From contig JAHRHZ010000140.1 in NCBI GenBank assembly GCA_024137785.1, positions 21,647,451-21,711,450 of the forward strand: DNA of 64,000 bases, in the 5' to 3' direction. Both the position numbers and the translations under genes were made by a program. Below the pieces are notes generated by a model. The model was not told where the DNA came from. It did no database searches and saw only the letters and a program-made list of their open reading frames with translations. The DNA is from Ginglymostoma cirratum. Lineage: Eukaryota. The stretch's first letter is position 1. Each line of letters begins with the position of its first letter. Below, piece by piece: positions 30,995 to 55,011 of the stretch.

Positions 30995-31127
30995 CTGTTT
31001 TGGGGTCCACATCTGCTGGTAAGTGTGGTGGAGGGTTACCTGGTGTGAAGTGTTCATTACTGTATGTTATCAGTGGTGTTAACGGGTGGACATGATGGGG
31101 ATGTTGCACAACGGGTACTTTATTAGA
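30995..31127 (-). CDS. TCF7L2: TCF7L2 internal coding exon (133 nt; [45 protein letters not shown]), phase 0 to 1
   Basis: Manual translation of the minus strand. Acceptor cttcttttgacag|TCT, donor ACAG|gtaggt. Peptide matches human TCF7L2 as recalled; TCF7L1 differs here (HHMHP, NDHFSPGSPP). Confidence 0.97.
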
Positions 31128-35004: not shown

Positions 35005-35600
35005 GAGATAAAAGGTACTGCAGATGCTGGAGAATCCGAGATAACAATGCGTGGGGCTGGATGAACACAGCAGGCCAAGCAGCAGCATAGGAGCAGGAAA
35101 GCTTGACGTTNNNNNNNNNNNNNNNNNNNNNNNNNNNNNNNNNNNNNNNNNNNNNNNNNNNNNNNNNNNNNNNNNNNNNNNNNNNNNNNNNNNNNNNNNN
35201 NNNNNNNNNNNNNNNNNNNNNNNNNNNNNNNNNNNNNNNNNNNNNNNNNNNNNNNNNNNNNNNNNNNNNNNNNNNNNNNNNNNNNNNNNNNNNNNNNNNN
35301 NNNNNNNNNNNNNNNNNNNNNNNNNNNNNNNNNNNNNNNNNNNNNNNNNNNNNNNNNNNNNNNNNNNNNNNNNNNNNNNNNNNNNNNNNNNNNNNNNNNN
35401 NNNNNNNNNNNNNNNNNNNNNNNNNNNNNNNNNNNNNNNNNNNNNNNNNNNNNNNNNNNNNNNNNNNNNNNNNNNNNNNNNNNNNNNNNNNNNNNNNNNN
35501 NNNNNNNNNNGAAGGGTCTAGGCCCGAAACGTCAAGCTTTCCTGCTCCTATGCTGCTGCTTGGCCTGCTGTGTTCATCCAGCCCCTCGCATTGTTATCTC
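35005..35600. mobile_element. Young Penelope-derived inverted-repeat element spanning the assembly gap
   Basis: 73-bp arms 35038-35110 and 35528-35600 with one mismatch. Perfect 15-bp TSD atactactcaactca at 34990-35004 and 35601-35615. Partial hammerhead gaa-GGGTCTAGGCCC-GAAACGTC. Confidence 0.85.
35111..35510. other. Assembly gap (400 N)
   Basis: Run of n characters. Confidence 1.
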
Positions 35601-41913: not shown

Positions 41914-42036
41914 CCAGCTGTTTAGATTGAGATGCCAGCAACCAAACTGATGGAGAAAGGAGAGCCCAGAGGCTAGCGTTCCTCCTTTATTGTTCCCTTC
42001 TTCCATTCCCAGCAAAATCGCATCCCTCGGGTACAT
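41914..42036 (-). CDS. TCF7L2: Candidate alternative first coding exon of N-terminally truncated TCF7L2 (MYPRDAILLGMEEGNNKGGTLASGLSFLHQFGCWHLNLNSW)
   Basis: ATG with A at -3, 41 open codons, then TGG|gtaagt, a phase-0 donor compatible with the SNKV exon acceptor. Corresponds to the start of track ORF 41833..42036. Confidence 0.6.
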
Positions 42037-43172
42037 GCTGCTTTATCTTCTGTTGTCTCTTAACCTCTACAACTTTCCCCCCCTTTCTCTGTCTCCTTGG
42101 TGCCGACTGCGCTTTGTATCTTTGTGGTTTTGCGAGTGCCCCCCTTTTTTTTTAAAGGAGGTTACTAAAAAAATGTCTTAAAATATCAAGAGCTTTCCAG
42201 TTCTGTGACCTGGTGTTTTTAGAACCAACATTCTCATTCACGGTTGCCGTTAGTAGCATCTTAGTCCTGGTGTAGTCCTATATCTGCCGTACAGCAGATA
42301 CCAAAATTGAGGACACACTGAAACGATAACATAGATCACTGCACCAAAATGCTCACTTAGAAATGAGTAAGACCGCACACATGGATATAACCCCATGCGT
42401 ACTATTTATTTTCTTTTCAAAGCCTATAACTCTCCTAGGATTACCAAAATGACAATGCTGCAACTCTAAATGGAAAGGTGTCAATAAGTGCAGCAGTGAG
42501 GAGACAAGCATTGGTTAAGGGAGCATGATCAACAAACTGTAGCATGCAGTCACATCTGTGGGAATGTCAAATCCCTCACGCTGAACTTCTGGGGATGGAG
42601 CTCAGAGAATGCTCTTTTTTTGACACAGTGACATTATAATATATATCATACATATACGTAGTCATACACTCAAAAATATAAAAAATATATGTAAAAAAGA
42701 CACCTGTGAGGTCTTGCCATCAGTCGCAGCAGGCTTTTTTATTATAACAGTAAATAGGGTGGAGAAAAGGCAAAGCACTAGACCTCACTGCAGCTTCAAC
42801 TGGCTGACCTCGGCTACACACAATATACAAGAGCAGCTTTTGTATTGCAAGGATTCTCTTTCCGAGTTGCTTTTTGCATACTGCTTCCCGTCGCTAATTG
42901 CATCCCCAAACAAAACCCTCTCCATCTCCAAATTGGGGGGCAGCTCATATGTTCCAGTAAATGCCTTTCACAATAGAAGCAAAAGTAATGAAACGCTCCC
43001 ATTAACTGTGACACCCCTCCCACCCCCAAAACCATGAGTAAAGGTGGCTCACAGCCTACAATATCCTCCCATCTCCAAAAACCACTCAACTTATTAAAAA
43101 CAAACTTTATACGTATCCAGTTTTAAACTCGTTCAGCAAAATCCACAGAACCTGTCACATACCTTTCCTTAC

Positions 43173-43194
43173 CATCTTATCTGTCTATTAAAAA
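43173..43194 (-). other. TCF7L2: Candidate alternative 5' exon ending in ATG (dnTCF7L2-type); 5' boundary uncertain
   Basis: ...gataagATG|gtaagg with ATG at 43175-43173. In-frame TAG four codons upstream. A pyrimidine tract and cag acceptor lie at 43196-43195. Confidence 0.55.
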
Positions 43195-44017
43195 CTGACA
43201 AGACACGAGAACAGGGGAAACAAAACAGTATGCAGTTTTTCCCTCTTTATTTAATGCTCTGCACTAATCTGGCCTTCGCGTGCAAAGTGTCGGCCAGAAA
43301 TCTTTTAGGCCTTAATACCAAAACAAAACCTTTGAATTCCCTTTATATGGTGCAATACAGGCGCTAACAAAGGCAATGAGGCTACAGTTTGACATGTAAA
43401 AAGCCCAACAACGAAGCAGCTAATTACATTCCCTCCCTCTATTCATGGTGGCCACCACACTCCAGCAGCTTCCTTTGTCACACGTGCAATTTCTTAAGTA
43501 AACTGGGAGTTTGGTTGCTGATGATGGACAGTTACTAATCATTTAGCACAATGAATGCTAAGTACGGCAGAAAGGATGGGCAACTTCAACACAGATTTCT
43601 TTGGGATTGGAGGATGCGAGAAGAAAAAGAAGCAGGAGGAAAGCTCGCCACACAGACGACGAAAGGTGAACACTTAAAATACCAGACGCTTTCAGTCCAC
43701 ATATTTACCTTACATCTATTGAAGGAGGGGGTGGTAGTGGTGGGGGCGATGTGGAGGGGAAGGCAAAAACACACTGTGGGAAAGAGAGACTGCAAATCAA
43801 ACTTGCCAACTCAGATCAACTTCAGCCATTATAGCAAGGGGAAAGAAAAATTCTGAATACTTCCATTACTCAGTAGTTTCTTTTGCCCAGAAAAGTTTGC
43901 CTTAAATCTCAATTAAAACAAAACGCACCGTAAAAGCACAATTCATCTAGAAGTCATATTTGTAAGTGGAAATAATACTCTAAGACATTCAACCCTTCGT
44001 AAAATTTGCTAACTTAC

Positions 44018-44250
44018 CATTTACACCTGCTCAAATTACGATGCTTCACACTGCCTGAATTCAAGCATGCTGCCGTTCCCGTGCTACAGCACAAATCAGC
44101 CAGCTCTTCACGATGTGGGCAGATCCACTGGGGGGCAGCACCCTACCTGAGCCACTTACAGCCGAGATGCTGCTGAGATAGGGACACGAAGCGTTTACAT
44201 CCAACTCCAGCTCTCCGGGAAAAGATGCTCAAGTTCAGGTTTATTCAGTG
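44018..44250 (-). other. TCF7L2: Candidate alternative first exon ending in ATG (dnTCF7L2-type); 5' boundary uncertain
   Basis: ...gtgtaaATG|gtaagt with ATG at 44020-44018 and an in-frame TAA immediately before it. The body is locally richer in GC and CpG. Confidence 0.6.
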
Positions 44251-44831
44251 AATTACCTTGCTTCATGGGAAAAAGATAATGAGATGGCAACACTCATTTG
44301 ATCAGAACCAGTCCCGAATCACTAACAGTTCAGAAAGGAACAAAAGAATAAGAGTTGCTTGCCTTCTTGGCAACATGAAAACCAGTTTCAACCTCTTATA
44401 AATATAAATTGGCTCATATTTTGAAGCAAGAGACAAAAAAGAAAAGAATTTCCTTTCTCACCCCTCCCTTTCCCAAGATGTAAAGACTAACGTACCGTCT
44501 ATTTTGCCCACGTAACCAGATCAATTTAAACAGTTTCATCAGGAAAAGTAGAACTATGAAATAATTTTGATACATCAATTGCAAGTTTTAAGATAACGGC
44601 AACTTAACAAGTTATATGTCCGTGCTCTAATATTTGTCACAGCCAAACATGGCAAGCAGTTCCATAAAGCTTCACTGCCCACTTTTGAAGCCTGCGTTAC
44701 TAACACACGCAGAATGACACCACTGAGCGCCTTTAAAGGATACTAGGGGAAAAAAATGACTATTGATCTTCAAATGGTGATAATTGAAAAGATCAAAAGA
44801 TTAAACAAAATCAAAAAATGCGCTGACTTAC

Positions 44832-45240
44832 CATGTTATGCTTTTTTTTGTTACAACTTGGTTGAAATTTCAGTCAAACAAGCTTCATCGGAGGTGTCAA
44901 ATTTTTGGCGGACTGTGATCGTATTACTTCCGCAGCCTTGCCTCACAATACTTCAGAACTTTTTACCTAGCTTTGGTTTACTTTGAAAGCTGCAGCTCAG
45001 CAAACCAGCACAAATTATCTTGCCACCTTCTACAGCTCTGATGCTTTGGCCGCTAACTTTGGAAGGCCCTTTACTACTGCATCAAAATTAGCATTGTCAA
45101 AGCGGTTAATGAATATTAATACTGTATTTGTCATTGGAGCTGGCCTGATGCTGAACTCCGAGCCATCCATCAGGGACAAGATTAAGAACACAATTATTTC
45201 TGACTGACAGGGTCCAAATCTGCTAGATTTTTTTTGCAAT
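44832..45240 (-). other. TCF7L2: Candidate alternative 5' exon ending in ATG (dnTCF7L2-type); 5' boundary uncertain
   Basis: ...cataacATG|gtaagt with ATG at 44834-44832 and an in-frame TGA at 44876-44874. A strong acceptor-like gtctcttatttttttag| lies at 45242-45241. Confidence 0.6.
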
Positions 45241-46382
45241 CTAAAAAAATAAGAGACAAAAAAACATCTTATGGGTTCCCCCTGGGGACGAACAGTCAGA
45301 TTAATACACTTTTAATGAAGTGAAGGCTATTAAGTATGAAGAAAAAGCAAACAAGATGTACAAGTCGAACTTACAAATGCAGCAAGGTGGCTGATAAAAA
45401 TTAAAAGAATACAATATCTTTTTCGACAGCTGTCTGAAATTTTTCTTCAGAGCTTTCTGGGATGAAGAAAGAATCTTTCTTCCCAAATCTGCATCATTTG
45501 AATAAGGAATGTACTGTTATAACCCACTTGGGATAATTGTCTCTACCTTATGTCTTAACAACATCAACTCAAAGACAGGATCCTAAATAATTCCTACACA
45601 AATATAATAATCAACACGCTCTTAAAAACAATTGACAATCACGATTCTTCTCTCAATTGCATCTGCATAAATCATGTTGCTAAAAATACTTTTTAAAAAA
45701 TGTAAATGTTAAATAGACCTTGTGCAGCTTTTATTATACCATATTGTAAATTGTCAAAAAAACTTTGTCTTGCAATACAAAAGCGCAAGTTATACCATAC
45801 TTAGAAACAATGCCCTAACCTTTTAATGCTGACAGTTTCTGTGGGAATTTAATCATGAATATCTACAACAAAAGGCAACTTCATTTAACTATGCTTCTAT
45901 GGTTATCTTTTACTTACAGCTAAATATCACTAGAATTTCCCGCAAGTAGAGTCATGCAACTTGTTTTGATCTGAAATACAAGAACTATAGACATATAGTA
46001 AATATCATCCATCGTTATTCTCACTTACTTCCTTTCCACCTCATGCAAGCTTTGTTCTTTGCATTTTGGTAACTTTGGACTTTTTAAAAAAATATATCAG
46101 TTACAGAATACGACCATGACACCCACAATGGGAAACAGCGGAAAAGTTCAGACACAGTTTTGAATAACAAAAGGAAATTTGGAATAAAGTGATTTGAATC
46201 ACAAACCTAAAAGTGTTTCATTTCTCAGCTAACCTTCAAAAATAATACCGATGTGCCAGAAATAGGCAAGTACAGGACTGGTTTTAGCCCCGCTACAGGA
46301 CGAATTTTCCTTTCTCAGCAATGTTAAGCCTTTTAAAACTTACTTTATTTAAAAGTTGATTTAAGGCTGGGGAAGGGGTAGT

Positions 46383-46406: not shown

Positions 46407-49400
46407 AAGTAAAAATAAAAGCTGACAGATGCAGCAGTTAATGCCATCTGACCAGTGAAATAAGGGGGTCTGGGTCAAGCGACTATGGCTGCCAAGCTAA
46501 TCTACTGCTCTCACTGACCACCCCACTTGCTGCTCCTAATACCATTAGCAATCCTTAGATGAACATTCTAAATTGGAGTTTTGTCCTCTTATGAACCAGT
46601 CTGACCCTGATGTAACAATCCTGGAACTCCATATGCAGATGATAAATCTCCTGCAAACGTTTCTTTCAGCTTTGAGATTCTTTTTCCCTTGCACGTCTTT
46701 TGTCTCACTCAATTCTTTGAGCCCACTCCGACTTGAAATAAATACTACAAGCATGAAAATACGCCCAATACTTTCCCCACCATGTTACGCGTATCATTTA
46801 ATTTTGAAGTGCACCCTGATACATTTCCAACACATTATTTTTGGGGCTTTCCATCTTGCTTGTCTTTGTGTAAATTGCGTCTACATTGTACGGTCTTGAG
46901 AACAGGTAAGTGAGGAAAAGAGAAAATGGAGGATGTTTGTGAGAACTGTCAGATTTGAAGCTTTCTAGCCAAGTGAAGTTAGAGGCTGCTGACTCTGAAG
47001 CGGTGGGTGCAGAAAGCATTTGCCTGACAGAACATTTACGGCAGACAGCTCCCGCTACCTCTACTTACACAGCACGATCACATCAGCCCTAGTATCAAAT
47101 TAACTCACTGACTTTGAAAGTTATTGATCTGCTATTAAGACACTAGTGAACTTGATGAAATCAGTGCTGTAGGTGCATTGAAGACTTCAAAGTCTCACAC
47201 AGACACATAAAACAAGTTTCTTTGATCCTTTTTACGATCCGCAGAGAGTTTAAAACCCAATTCTCGATGTGCTGCTTTTCACACTCATCAGGTCTGATAT
47301 TTTTGCAATAGACAGCTTGATAAATTTAATACTGCATACTTTAGCAAACAACTAATTCTAAACCAATATCTTAATTTGCTTAGGCAAACAGCATCATTTA
47401 TTTAAACGTGCCAAATATAAACCAATTTTCACCTTTATTACTGTCTGCACTGCAGGAACCAGGAATTTTCAGTGCAGAAGTGTACATGGTCCTTGCCATG
47501 TCTACATCAGTATTTTATCATAAGATGATTAATTTGTACAGACTTGCTGAAATTCTTATTTGAAGGACTAACCATTAATATTTAAAGCAAAAATGCCATG
47601 AAACACCACAAACAAGTATATTCAGAACTTATTTTATGGATTTATTGAATTGATACACAGGACAGGATCTGTAGCTATTATTCAGAGATTTTTGTTAAAA
47701 AAAGCACAATAGATTTTTAAAAGTAGCTAACTGGTTAAAGAAGCATAACTGGCAGCAGTATTACTAGGCATGCAACGAAAGATATTAAGAAGTTCAAGTA
47801 AAGGGAAGAAAAGAATTTGAGCAGGAAACTGCCACTTTAAATTAGGGAATGATATTGCAATAAAGAAAACCAAATGAAATACAAACCTCGGAAAGATAAA
47901 ATAATCCAGAGATTAGGCCCTAGGTCATTCATTAGGCACCACAATCATTTCTTCTACAAAGAACACACAACATGCCAACATAAAAAATTAGTGATTGATA
48001 ATCAAGATATTTAAATTGGAACTTAAAATATTATACACTTCTGTTAAAAGGCAAAAAAGTACTACTTTTAAACAAGGATCTGCTACTTTAACCGATTCTC
48101 AATTTCATTATTAAATTTTACTTTAACCATGATAGAAAATACTAAGCATTCTAGGCTGGTTAGGAGGTAATATTTTAATTCTAAGGAATGTATTTATTGT
48201 AAAATACATTCAGCAAAAGCGACAACTTACATAGGGAAAGTACACATTGTTAATCATGAGAAATAGCATGTTACTGTAAACAAAAAAAAAATCATCTGCA
48301 CAAACCTTTACCATGATTTTACATTTAAACAGAGAAAAGGTTCATGCAAATTCGCTACAAAAAAAATTCTTCTACGTAGACAGTTCTCACCAAAACACTG
48401 TTTGCTAATGAAATCATCTACCATACAATTCAGGAACAAATTAAGTTTTTGTACTAGCTACTGGGGTCCCACTTACAATTCTAATGAAGTCAACACTCCA
48501 ATAAGATGTGTTCAGAAAGTTTCCTGGGCCACCAGCACAGAGATCCTTTTCACCAATTAGTGCAAAGAAAAAGAAGGGAAAAAAAGTGCCCGCACTCAAA
48601 GAGCTAGGCCTTACGGCAAATCTGTCATGTCGACTGAATTGATCAACGGGACTGGTATTTCTAATGGCATCTTGTCAGAAAAAGTCAGCCATAGGGAGCC
48701 ACCTGTGTTACTCTTTGCAGACAGCTAAAGAGCAAGATACCGATCTCAGGCAGCACCTTGTACTAACAATTTGGAAGAGCAGTCTGATTTCTACTGCCGT
48801 ACAACTTGTCATTCTGCAATCATCACCTGGCTACCTTTTTCAAGAATTGTTATATGCTGAACACAGCTCCTCTGTAGACAGCCAATTTACTCGATACTAA
48901 GAACATTACAAAATGGTGAAAATTATCCATTTCTAACAAACCCAATTAATTTTGCATATCATTATGCTCATGTATTCTCTTGTCTAACCCTAAACAGAGC
49001 TTAGATTTTGCAAAATAACAAGAGTACAGTTGACGTGCAGTCCTGTTTGGCCAAGGAACACCTTTCCAGGTTCAATAACACTGCCCCTGAAATCTCAGAA
49101 GTTAGACACTTTATTATCTGTAGTGCTATGAACAATTTTGCTGTGTGCTGCCATTAACATTACAGGAGACGGACAGCCAGACATTTACCAAATATATTAT
49201 TGGATTCCACAAAAAGAATTCTGAAACTGAGCTAAATTGCGCATAAACATCAGAAGATGGACATAAATTTTGGGGCTATCTAGTTTGTTAAGTGACTCAA
49301 AGCACTTGGATTGTAAATCACGTATTGTAACCTTCCTCGCTCTCATCAGTCAATGAAATTCTCAGGTTCTTTTCTCGCAGCCTGCGGCGGTGGCTTTGCC

Positions 49401-52400
49401 CAGGGACATATACCAATAGAAAAATTTTCATCATGTTAGCATTTCAAATGGCAGAAAGTGAAAGGAAGCCCTAACTGATCATAGCCTGTGGAATTAATTG
49501 GCTATTCTCTGAATAATGTCGCTCATCGCATATCCTTGGGAGACAAGCACTAGCCGAGGCCACATTTTGTGCAATGGCTTCAAAAAAAAAAAGCGCTTAG
49601 GGGGTATTGGAGGTCTTAAGACTTTAGCGCATTTCCCCAAAGACCACGCAAATACAACCAGTGAGCCTTGCCCAACTAATCCATTTGGTAATTAAATGCA
49701 CAATTCCATTAAACATTCTTTCATCACTTCAAAATTAAACAAACAATAGATTCTGATTGCTTCAAGTCTATATGTAGGATTCTATACATCAATGCAATGA
49801 GTGCAACTAGAAAACTTCGGTTTTAAGTGATGAGAGTAAGAAATATTTTCGGCTTTTTGCCAATTTTAAAACAAAGAACTCAAGTAGACGCCATGTTGCT
49901 ACTTGTTTCATTCTGTGGGATTAAAGTTTGAGCTAGCTTTCTTTCGTCAAAGGCTATGCAATGACCCTGCTTGATATGAGTATACTTCTCTTTAAGACAC
50001 ATCTTAATCTAACCTTTTGCAGGACTCTTTGCTTTCAAACTCAAAACAGCATTAAAAATAGGCATTGTTGGTCAGCCCTGGGAGACTGAGCTCCTAGCTT
50101 TCGCTGGCCAGGGCAGTTGCCTTCTGGATACACAGCTGCTTATGTACCAAGTAAGCTCTGTACAGCAAAGGAAAGCAAAGTGGGAGAAAATGAAAAGACG
50201 AGATTAAGCATCTTCGCAAATGTTCCATCTTTCGTTATCGACTTCAGCCTAGCGTGAGGTGTCAATTTTCAGCTCTAAAGAGAGGACACAAATTCGCAGC
50301 GGTCCCATTATGCGGTCTCTTCGCTCATTGTATATTCCGTCAACGAAGTCAATCTTATTAACTTCCGCTCTGGTTCACACATGACATTTTCTTCAATTTT
50401 CTTGCCAACATCAAAAACATCAATTAGCAGCTAGAAAATAGGAAGGAACAAATGACAGAGCCCGATAACGTCAACTATTTGAAACAGAGGGTAAATCTAT
50501 TCCGCAATACTGAATGCACTCATTACCAATTCATTTTCAAAGCAGGCTTCCAAATAGCAAGGAAAATTAAATTTACCATCTAGAAATGTCCAGAAATTGT
50601 TTGCTTTTTAATCCTATATCTTTAGCGCCATTTCCAAATACAAGATGATGAAATGTTACCTAGTTTTAGGTTTATACAATGCAACTTAGACAGAAGTTGG
50701 TATTACTGTAGATGGGTTCAGCAGTATTCAGAATGCACTGAAAATCACGCAGAAACATGAAATAAATGGAACCATCCAAATTTACACCAATATTTATGCA
50801 CATTTTTGCCCTACTTTCCAAAATGTAAGTTGTAAGAAAGATTTCTTTATCCATTGAAATGAGTCCAATTACAAACTTATTTGCTTTTTGCAGCTCACTT
50901 CATTTTACTGGATAACTGACATGTAGCTAAAAGTGTATCGTAGCAAACCTTGTTTTACAATACTTAAGTAAAAGCTATTTCTGCTGATGTGCCTGCTTTA
51001 TGAGAAGGCTTTCATGCTTGTATTACATCTCCGAGGGAGTGAATAAAAGCAAATTTAGTGACTGCTGAAGACGACTGCTCGGAATTAATGTGAACAGAAA
51101 AGAGCAGCTACACCAAATAAACAGATCACTTTCCTCTGGCCATTGATTTCTTGATCTTTTGACATTATTTACGAGCTTCCTATTCTCTTTCCTGTCTTTT
51201 TTTCCAATGTCACAAAGGAAAAATGTCTAAACAGCTGATGGCAGGATTATCAATTAGCTGTCAAGATGCTGCTTTCCAGTACTGAACAATACCTGCCATA
51301 ATACAGAGAATCTGTAATATAGTGAGGCACATATAATACTGTGCTTTCTGTGCATAGACTCGCATAGTGAAAAGTCTTGAATGGAACTTGTGTCCGATCA
51401 TTTCTACAAATATATTGATTTATTGGGTTGTAACTGAATACATATTGTAAATTATAATTAAGAATTTATACTTAATATCAGATAACATTGACTTGCAAAC
51501 TACACATTTTTCCTATCAAATTATGGGGTGGCAGATAGGGTGCGTGGTACCTGCTACATAACTCCCTGTAAGCACATTCTATTGAAATTGCAATCATTTT
51601 CTTTTGGTGCATTCCAAGACCTAACCTTAGAGCCTCTATTTATTCTGTTTCTAAAGTAGGGGTAATGTGGCCGGGGGGAAAAGAGATAGAAGTATCCAGA
51701 TTCAGGTGATTAAGTTGGCACTAGTACTGTAATGAGGATGGATACATTCACTTAAACAATCATTTGCACAAAAATGTATTTTGCTTCTAAAGATTGTTGC
51801 AAGTTGTGAAACTAAGAATTTGTGAATTATAATTTACTAAGCATGTTGCTAGATCAGTAACCCTTTCAGTTTAATTAAATCATTTTAAAAGCAAGACCAA
51901 CTGAAAATACCACTATCATCTGTGTTAAAAAGTTGTATAATATTGTCCAATCTTTACAAATCAAATTTCAGTTGTAAATGTATAGAAAATTACATGGTAC
52001 AAATAAAGACCATAACCACATAAATAATTACACTGTTAGGGCTCACAAAAAGAATAAGCTTAAAATGTAAATGATCTACATCTTAATTGGTATCTTTAAG
52101 TGCTTGTGTAAAACACAGTACATGTAAAACAATTTCAGTGTTTTTTTAACCAACTATCTTCATGTTACTTTCATTTTGCGAGAGAATTTGGCATCGGAAT
52201 TTCTAATACTTCCAGCCCCTTTAAGAGGTAAAACACTGAATTTGGTAACTGCAAGGTGTTGAAATAAATACTGCTCCAGTAGCTAAAGTGGATGATGTTT
52301 GGAGGTTCTGACGCATTTTTAAAAAAAAAAATCACTGCTGGGTAATTTGGTCAATGTTTTATAACCATCTTAATATTCTGAGACACCTAAAAAAATTTTA

Positions 52401-55011
52401 GCAGGTTTCAGAAATAATGCTTAAAGGAGCTATAAGTAATTTAAGTAATGATTCAGAACATCCTGGACAATACACAGTCAGAATATATTTGGGGACAGGG
52501 TGGGAAGCAGAGGCGAGCAGTGGTAAAGAAAGAATCTTCAAAGATCTTTCAATGCTTTAATATGTAGCTGTATTTGCTAAAAATTCCCCATCTGCAGTAT
52601 CTTACAGCTCACCCACTACTGCATAGAATTCTAAAATATTACTAATGATCAGAACCATGCTATGCAGTATTAATCTCCAAAATTTATGCTTTAATATGAC
52701 AAGTTTTTTTTAAAAAAATCAATGTTTTTCTAACAATTACATTTCTTTAAAAAAATACTATTCAGGAATTATTATTGGTATCACAGAAGTCAAAATTCAA
52801 TATTCTATAAAGTGTTATTGGTATTTTTCCTGACAATTTACATCCTTATTTGGAATAACAAGTTCAAATATTTTTACTGTTGTGTCAATAGCAAAATGTT
52901 CATTGACCCAAAGCAACAAACAGTAACCACAAGCTGCTGATTACCGGCATTTGCGGTTGTGGTTCTGCACCATGCTCTGTCCTTGAAACTGATGCCGCAC
53001 ACGAATCCATTAGGCGAGAGCGTTGGTGCTCTTGATCTATTATTTACAAAGAAAACCCTCCCCTTGCTTAAGTGGCCCCTATACTTCAGCCTTCATTACA
53101 TGATAATTTTTATTCTTTGTAAAAAAAAACATCCTCCGTTTAATCAGGCTGATAGCACCTACATGGTGTCCAGTCTTGCTGTGTGGGGTTTTTTTAAAAA
53201 AAACCCTAGCATTCCCACAATGGCATTGTCATTCGGAGCACTGCTATAACTTAATATCTAAAATTTAAGCATGATTTATTAGCAGAGACCCTGTGCCATT
53301 TAGCCTTTTTGAAACAAAATTGAACAATTTGCTTCCTATCATCCATAACTCCAGGTATTTCTTTGGCTACTGTAGTATATATAACTCATTCTCAGATAAT
53401 GTAACCATTTTACATACTGTTTCCATTGACACTTGTAATCTGTGCAAAGATAATTTTTAAGGAAACGGACAGGATTTAATTAATGGTTTGGATACTACTT
53501 ATAAAGAAACACTGAGTGGAATACCTTTTTACCAGTGGAAAACGTATTTAAGTGGTATTTTATGCTTCATTAAGTGCTCACATTTCAAACTTGCAGGACA
53601 ATTTAAATACACAAGCAACTACTAATTGTTCTTAATCACATTCCCTTCTCACTAAATCATACACGTAACCTATACGCCTTATAAGGAACAAGGTCAAAAC
53701 CACAGATTGATCTCTCCTCCACTGCTGTCTCCTTCACCTTCCAAAACAATTTCCAAAATATAAACCTGACAGCGATTAGTAAAAATTCTATGAATTTGTG
53801 CAGTTATGTTATTTGTTATGCAGGAAACAGAAGCAATACAATTAAAAAAAGTTTACTTGCTGATTTATTTATACCACCGTCATGTTACAAGTTATATGGA
53901 TTCAAAAGCACTCCATACCACTAGAGGAATTCAGACTACTTGCTTTAATCATTTTAACATTTAACTAGCACTTATTAATTCAATTTGTCTTTATTACAGC
54001 CACCAGACGCTGATGGATAACCATCACTAACTGTGGTATGGCACTGCATGACAGAAAACTGCAGAACAATGCAATGTTATAGATAAAGCTATGAAGCAGC
54101 TGCTTATATTGTAGAGCTGAGACTCCCTTTCAGGTGCACACTATTAACCTGGCTACAGGTGATCTAAGTATTAGCAAAAAATACTACAATGTTGTACTAC
54201 TTGGATCACAGTATTTCAAGCACAAAAAGGAAAAAAAAAATGCCAAATAAAAGAGAAGAGTCACTAACCATCCCTCAAAATGAACTATTTACCTTGCAAT
54301 GCAAGGTTTGACAGAAATCCAACTTATCTATTAACTATGGAACATCAGATTTGATACTCACCATAAACATTGACAATCTATTTTTTTTTTTTAAAATGCA
54401 TCAGTAGGGTGCACATTCACCAGTTTAAAGCAACTTTGATCGGCAGTAGCAATTCCACGCAATTTAGCGTCCAGGCATTTGATATTTTGACAATGTGGAG
54501 GTATACTCATATCATTGGCAAACACCAATGAAAAGTGGTCAAAAGTAACCAGGCTTTCAAAATCTGGAATGAAGTGACATAATTTATTCAAATAGCCTGG
54601 AATTACTGAGAGTTTAATTCTCCATTTAGTAGTCCTGAAGTACCGAACAATTTAGGGTTTTGCAGCATTAGGTTATTTATCATATCATGTCACATCTGTA
54701 ACAACTCAAATGACTTACTTTTTGCCCCTCCCAAAGTATCTAACCATTTCTTTTACCAAAAAAAGCGCTTATGGATTCCATTTACTCATCATCACTTGTA
54801 GGCAATTCTGTGATATTATAGTCCACTATACATATTTTCTAAAATCTTCCAAATTAATTTTTTTTGTCGATATTGAATGCTTTTAGTTAGGACTCAATGA
54901 TAAGTGGAAACAGTTCACCAATATTGCAGAAATGACCACATAATTTTAAATGGCTCTCGGACCTTCTCTAATTTGATCTGTTCCAGACAAAAAAGCACCC
55001 CAGTTTTTCAA

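Follow-up and report, generated by a model that had tools for sequence, protein, structure and literature searches.

The window analysed here, a stretch of 64,000 nucleotides, lies within TCF7L2. By exon similarity the gene is that of a shark or ray and not a paralogue, as the sequence-only reading of this DNA had held in naming TCF7L2 of a probable cartilaginous fish: the exons in the window are 92-100% identical to elasmobranch TCF7L2, the best 120 matches to the skate protein query are cartilaginous fishes throughout, where named, and TCF7, LEF1 and TCF7L1 are located on contigs other than that of TCF7L2 in the host genome assembly (4.36 Gb). The exon that opens with SNKVPVV occupies 30995..31127 on the minus strand, with 45/45 residues identical to elasmobranch TCF7L2; it is exon V in the numbering of Torres-Aguila 2022 and exon 6 in mouse. 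The next two TCF7L2 coding exons, found by tblastn with the queries P0002 and P0003, lie at 9569..10352 (minus strand, approximate limits), and the exons for the Groucho site and the HMG box follow directly past the low end of the window. Both types of C-clamp exon, CRARF and CRALF, are found 2.6-3.8 kb past that end (L004/L005), as is an extra exon known from elasmobranch isoform annotation. An assembly gap of 400 bases (35111-35510) sits between 73-base inverted arms that are 99% complementary (window 35038-35600).

The features of interest form a cluster in the intron of about 60 kb between the exon encoding YLQM...HIV and the SNKV exon, and this position matches the intron where mouse has internal first exons, as had been suggested. 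The SNKV exon lies 11-14 kb downstream of the cluster, the last exon of the full-length form before SNKV about 46 kb upstream and exon 1, with the beta-catenin site, about 127 kb upstream. The constitutive exon upstream of the intron ends in phase 0, and the acceptor at 31127 likewise opens in phase 0, reading SNKVPVV. Since none of the three ATGs of the SNKV exon is in frame and the first in-frame Met comes 105 codons after the SNKV start, a transcript starting within the intron would likely need an in-frame ATG of its own. A first exon without one would therefore lose that 105-codon stretch or start in the wrong frame, and the most economical remedy would be an exon ending in ATG|GT, whose G is shared with the donor. 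We also considered that the start codon might be needed to retain the Groucho site, and rejected the idea, given that this site lies after the next in-frame Met.

Four candidate first exons were recognised, all on the minus strand. Candidate first exon A occupies 44832..44964, its 5' end being putative, and closes with an ATG (44834-44832) followed by GTAAGT. In candidate B the ATG at 44018..44020 is followed by GTAAGT and directly preceded by an in-frame stop, the stop codon at -3..-1 making for a weak start context, and in candidate C the ATG at 43173..43175 is followed by GTAAGG. For each of the three, splicing at the ATG would make the start codon the end of the exon. A competing donor-like site lies 10 nt past the ATG of exon C. 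It equals the ATG donors in consensus score, and its use would end the exon at 43163 and shift the ATG out of the SNKV frame. Other donor-like sites on the minus strand, at 44257, 44147, 43709, 46029 and 46344, could end further first exons; mouse has ten. No outside homologue was found for exons B and C. The coding part of first exon D spans 41914..42036 and consists of 41 codons, from Met to Trp, followed by GTAAGT; the fourth donor proposed at 41914 does close an ATG-initiated open reading frame, at 42036-41914. The accompanying proposal that four phase-0 donors would join 31127 to yield M-SNKV stands as regards the phase and falls as regards the product of the fourth, which would instead place a 41-residue start before SNKV.

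The word ATGGTAAG, that is ATG|GTAAG, occurs three times on the minus strand of the whole window (ATG at 44834, 44020 and 43175) and not at all on the plus strand, so that the positions first reported for it are confirmed and are its sole copies on either strand. The three span at most 1.7 kb, on the sense strand of TCF7L2. Markov models of orders 0-4 give an expectation of one copy per 50-62 kb per strand, and the 6 matches in 179 kb of other DNA of the same genome, counted on both strands, correspond to one per 60 kb per strand, in agreement with the hand estimate of about one per 60 kb per strand that preceded them. By simulation, three copies fall inside 1.7 kb by chance with P = 0.0008-0.0013, in line with the claim that the grouping is far from chance. 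A triple as such is not rare, however, because 128 of the 65,536 eight-letter words give one somewhere on a strand; 12 of these 128 have just three copies in all. Among the 64 words of the form NNN+GTAAG, ATG is the sole triple-former, and ATG is present at 3 of the 4 G|GTAAG sites at 41.9-44.9 kb versus 0 of the 14 elsewhere on the same strand. The in-frame stop said to precede each ATG was likewise found, 42, 3 and 12 bases ahead of A, B and C respectively, yet in-frame stops are usual in non-coding DNA and therefore add little. A fourth copy of ATGGTAAG, standing alone past the high end of the window, belongs to this intron as well and is found on its sense strand about 36 kb ahead of the SNKV acceptor; there is also a single ATG|GTGAG at window position 54364.

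Upstream of exon A, at 44980..45320 on the minus strand, lies a conserved non-coding element that is likely the core of an internal promoter. A scan of a metagenome collection with a 24-base word from the element matched a sole contig, the vertebrate contig L008, with 86% identity over 351 nt for the element and 77% over 94 nt for the body of exon A. The similarity stops about 10 nt before the ATG of exon A, and L008 contains neither ATGGTAAG nor any match to exons B-D. On the reverse strand of L008, the stretches 195-730 and about 1400-2050 cover the kept element and exon A body and, after these, unrelated DNA with broken retroelement-like pieces. L008 may represent a copy that was disrupted, or else a joined contig, and a conserved ATG|GT end gets no support from it. 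No second copy of the element was found in the shark's own genome.

In the conceptual translation of the element, 42 of 48 residues match ab initio models from birds (P0066/P0084). We tried the element as a 48-codon exon (window 45027-45170) and rejected it; none of the codon differences from L008 is synonymous and all seven are non-synonymous, and the frame carries a stop in the own genome, so the element is not coding. The 48-residue TCF7L2 starts of P0066 and P0084 in two bird genomes are likely annotation artefacts. All 11 TAAT/ATTA words in the aligned stretch, which are cores of the homeodomain type, are identical in L008, although their density in the element is within the top 5% of window tiles only, which counts against claiming Vax-type control. 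The CpG signal is weak: the best 3-kb tile starts at 42001, with 0.48 observed/expected versus 0.30 overall. The CpG ratio is also raised (0.44-0.47) at 47500-52000, upstream of the cluster, where further regulatory elements could lie.

Exon D is the member of the cluster with the clearest relatives. Its translation shares 38 of 41 residues (93%) with the start of the little-skate RefSeq model XP_055502842, which runs from the 41 residues straight into SNKVPVV, and 25-30 of 41 residues with amniote and teleost relatives. Relatives of exon D joined directly to SNKV are found in 19 of the 344 proteins containing the SNKV exon, with holders including skate, chicken, quail, rhea, girdled lizard, a python, platypus, rodents, mustelids and chimpanzee. 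In an alignment of 11 sequences, including carp, 17 of the 41 columns are invariant, and the teleost relatives retain the first Met and the last Trp. A profile search gave 32 matches, 28 of them reaching the last Trp, and among those with a name are an eel, two Antarctic fishes and carp; this protein search is blind to frameshifted copies, and the named entries are mostly computer models. In the fish-type copies the length changes preserve the frame. V-S directly follows the Trp in 22 of the 28 full-span relatives, as would be expected if an unspliced GT-AG-type donor were kept and read.

Within the own genome no second copy of exon D was found (next match E = 4); against Pfam it matched no family and against the protein atlas it gave no usable match. 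The alignment run against metagenomes returned 89 pattern matches, none of them confirmed, and no vertebrate DNA besides L008 was found there. A stop 9 nt before the exon D ATG closes the upstream frame. On these alignments, exon D is a well-supported coding first exon, homologous to the amniote one and in frame with SNKV, and the comparisons taken as a whole support a promoter-like element and a 41-codon exon common to elasmobranchs and bony vertebrates.

The product expected of the ATG-only exons, a protein starting M-SNKV, is recorded in 7 of the 344 SNKV-exon-containing proteins, in birds and mammals only (marmot, chicken, king quail, sparrow, apes, jerboa and a boreoeutherian cluster). 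Paired accessions exist for the single protein of chicken and likewise for that of king quail, as might be expected of several untranslated first exons, though this is no proof of them. These bird and mammal entries do not tell the source exon. Among the matches listed, none of the 166 cartilaginous-fish-type entries (164 named and 2 unnamed) starts with M-SNKV, and one is a short isoform, that of skate with exon D, in lists that favour long proteins and give no more than 15 members for each cluster. Most of the annotated isoforms come from computer models (XP_ accessions).

Taken together, these observations make the stretch most likely the elasmobranch orthologue of the TCF7L2 internal promoter cluster, whose first exons would splice to SNKV and give rise to a short TCF7L2 without the beta-catenin-binding domain. 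Among the ATG-only donors, that of exon A is quite likely used, that of exon B likely, and that of exon C also probably, with a little less confidence. According to this model, transcription would start inside the cluster. Exons A-C would contribute the start codon only, with the G of the ATG serving at once as the final exonic base at the donor, and their product would be M-SNKV; that of exon D would carry 41 residues ahead of the same protein. In skate, the short isoform covers profile positions 138-222 of the 222 of the Pfam family CTNNB1_binding, versus 1-222 for the long one. When the short isoforms of skate and chicken were scanned against Pfam, they lacked the beta-catenin-binding N-terminus and retained the HMG box, which is intact in the skate one. 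P0002 and the own genome both contain the TCF-4 Groucho site that Arce 2009 describes. The short products are thus expected to retain both the HMG box and the Groucho site, acting without beta-catenin. By analogy with mouse, expression would most likely be in the embryonic diencephalon and midbrain, and the effect of the short form on the long one, opposing or supporting, would depend on the tissue.

A cluster of this kind has a known counterpart in mouse, where the short form is called dnTCF7L2 or S-TCF7L2. Vacik, Stubbs and Lemke are said to have reported in 2011 that mouse dnTcf7l2 arises from an internal promoter in the same intron, driven by Vax2, and that work may already show the exon ends and their conservation. 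We infer that the conserved element described above is the one of that 2011 work. An intron-5 promoter has been reported in mouse, with the short form accounting for almost 70% of transcripts in the embryonic thalamus (Nagalski 2013), and long reads have revealed at least 10 first exons, of which 8 lie in about 6 kb whose deletion abolished the short protein (Qi 2023). The mouse 'exon 5-prime' cluster and the one described here are alike in gene, intron and acceptor, in having several donors within a few kb and in a product without the beta-catenin site, and both M-SNKV and 41-residue starts occur among mammalian entries. They differ in that the mouse exons, at least 10, come from long reads, whereas the four exons here are candidates picked from the sequence, and in that exons A-C could not be paired one to one with mouse exons.

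In the same line, Torres-Aguila 2022 (PMC9303524) describes at least two TCF7L2 delta-N isoforms, from exons between IV and V in its gnathostome gene model, assigns them to the origin of the post-2R gnathostome TCF7L2 subfamily and includes four cartilaginous fishes among its species; a gnathostome origin of the short isoforms has therefore already been proposed in print, and the inference in the sequence-only reading of a design at least as old as jawed vertebrates is not new. Unlike the present analysis, its text and supplement, in their accessible parts, give long-form shark proteins only and no first-exon sequence. The delta-N forms of TCF7 and LEF1 resemble those of TCF7L2 in their internal promoter and in the loss of the beta-catenin-binding domain, but start at a Met within exon III, whereas TCF7L2 uses new exons further downstream (Torres-Aguila 2022). 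In the 20-30 kb upstream of the matching exon in the three paralogues, we found no similarity to the cluster or to exon D. No such ATG|GTAAG cluster is present in the TCF7L1 intron, in agreement with the report that TCF7L1 is without a delta-N form (Torres-Aguila 2022). Our literature search, which most subscription papers lay outside, returned nothing published about short isoforms in sharks or about the 41-residue start.

Several other explanations deserve attention. In cartilaginous fish only exon D, and perhaps A, might work, at least one of the ATG|GTAAG words being an unused look-alike within a conserved enhancer region. It would be consistent with this that an elasmobranch model exists for exon D only, that the donor of exon A is missing in L008, and that the word turns up once per 60 kb per strand anyway, with one more copy in the same intron and single copies in paralogue introns. 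Against it, three copies are concentrated in 1.7 kb (P ~0.001), each of them in sense orientation and situated between the conserved element and exon D, and M-SNKV isoforms are known in birds and mammals; we regard this reading as unlikely. Far more improbable is the notion of internal cassette exons within the long transcript, with A-C adding upstream stops that lead to message decay and D inserting residues, even though the stop 9 nt before the exon D start means that inclusion together with upstream sequence could shorten the long protein.

A different question concerns not the structure but the label of its function. The exons may be real and their products not dominant negatives; the many promoters would then simply ensure a high dose of a TCF7L2 that acts without beta-catenin and overlaps in function with the long form, and we give this an even chance. 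The term 'dominant-negative switch' in the sequence-only reading was carried over from mouse, where it is contested. The original frog and mouse work reportedly found the short form to be antagonistic. In addition, Qi 2023 found repression of a TCF reporter by the short form in cells, and impaired pup calls when this form alone was lost. By contrast, a preprint on the embryonic mouse thalamus describes the long and short forms as largely redundant, against the dominant-negative label: 172 of 326 changed genes moved in the total knockout only, and changes in the long-only and short-only knockouts went in the same direction (Gabriel 2025).

The orthologous internal promoter cluster proposed above could also offer a choice of products. 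We put forward, tentatively and as less probable than its opposite, that the 41-residue start of exon D is a working module, in which a site for another partner or a signal for stability takes the place of the beta-catenin-binding domain, so that the cluster would pick between a bare and a capped short TCF7L2, a choice as old as jawed vertebrates. In this regard, the conserved peptide of exon D is the part most worth following.

The system is most likely one already known, to which the elasmobranch cluster adds, and because the system itself is known the surprise to specialists should be modest. Should the donors prove to be in use, an internal start region with several exons would have existed in TCF7L2 before the split between sharks and bony vertebrates, and shark embryos could be probed isoform by isoform; the catshark, in this context, is a model for the Wnt-dependent asymmetry of the habenula. 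The cited literature, in the parts accessible, treats the short isoform as a single species. A conserved 41-residue variant beside the bare M-SNKV protein would provide a concrete test in the dispute on whether short TCF7L2 opposes or backs up the long form.
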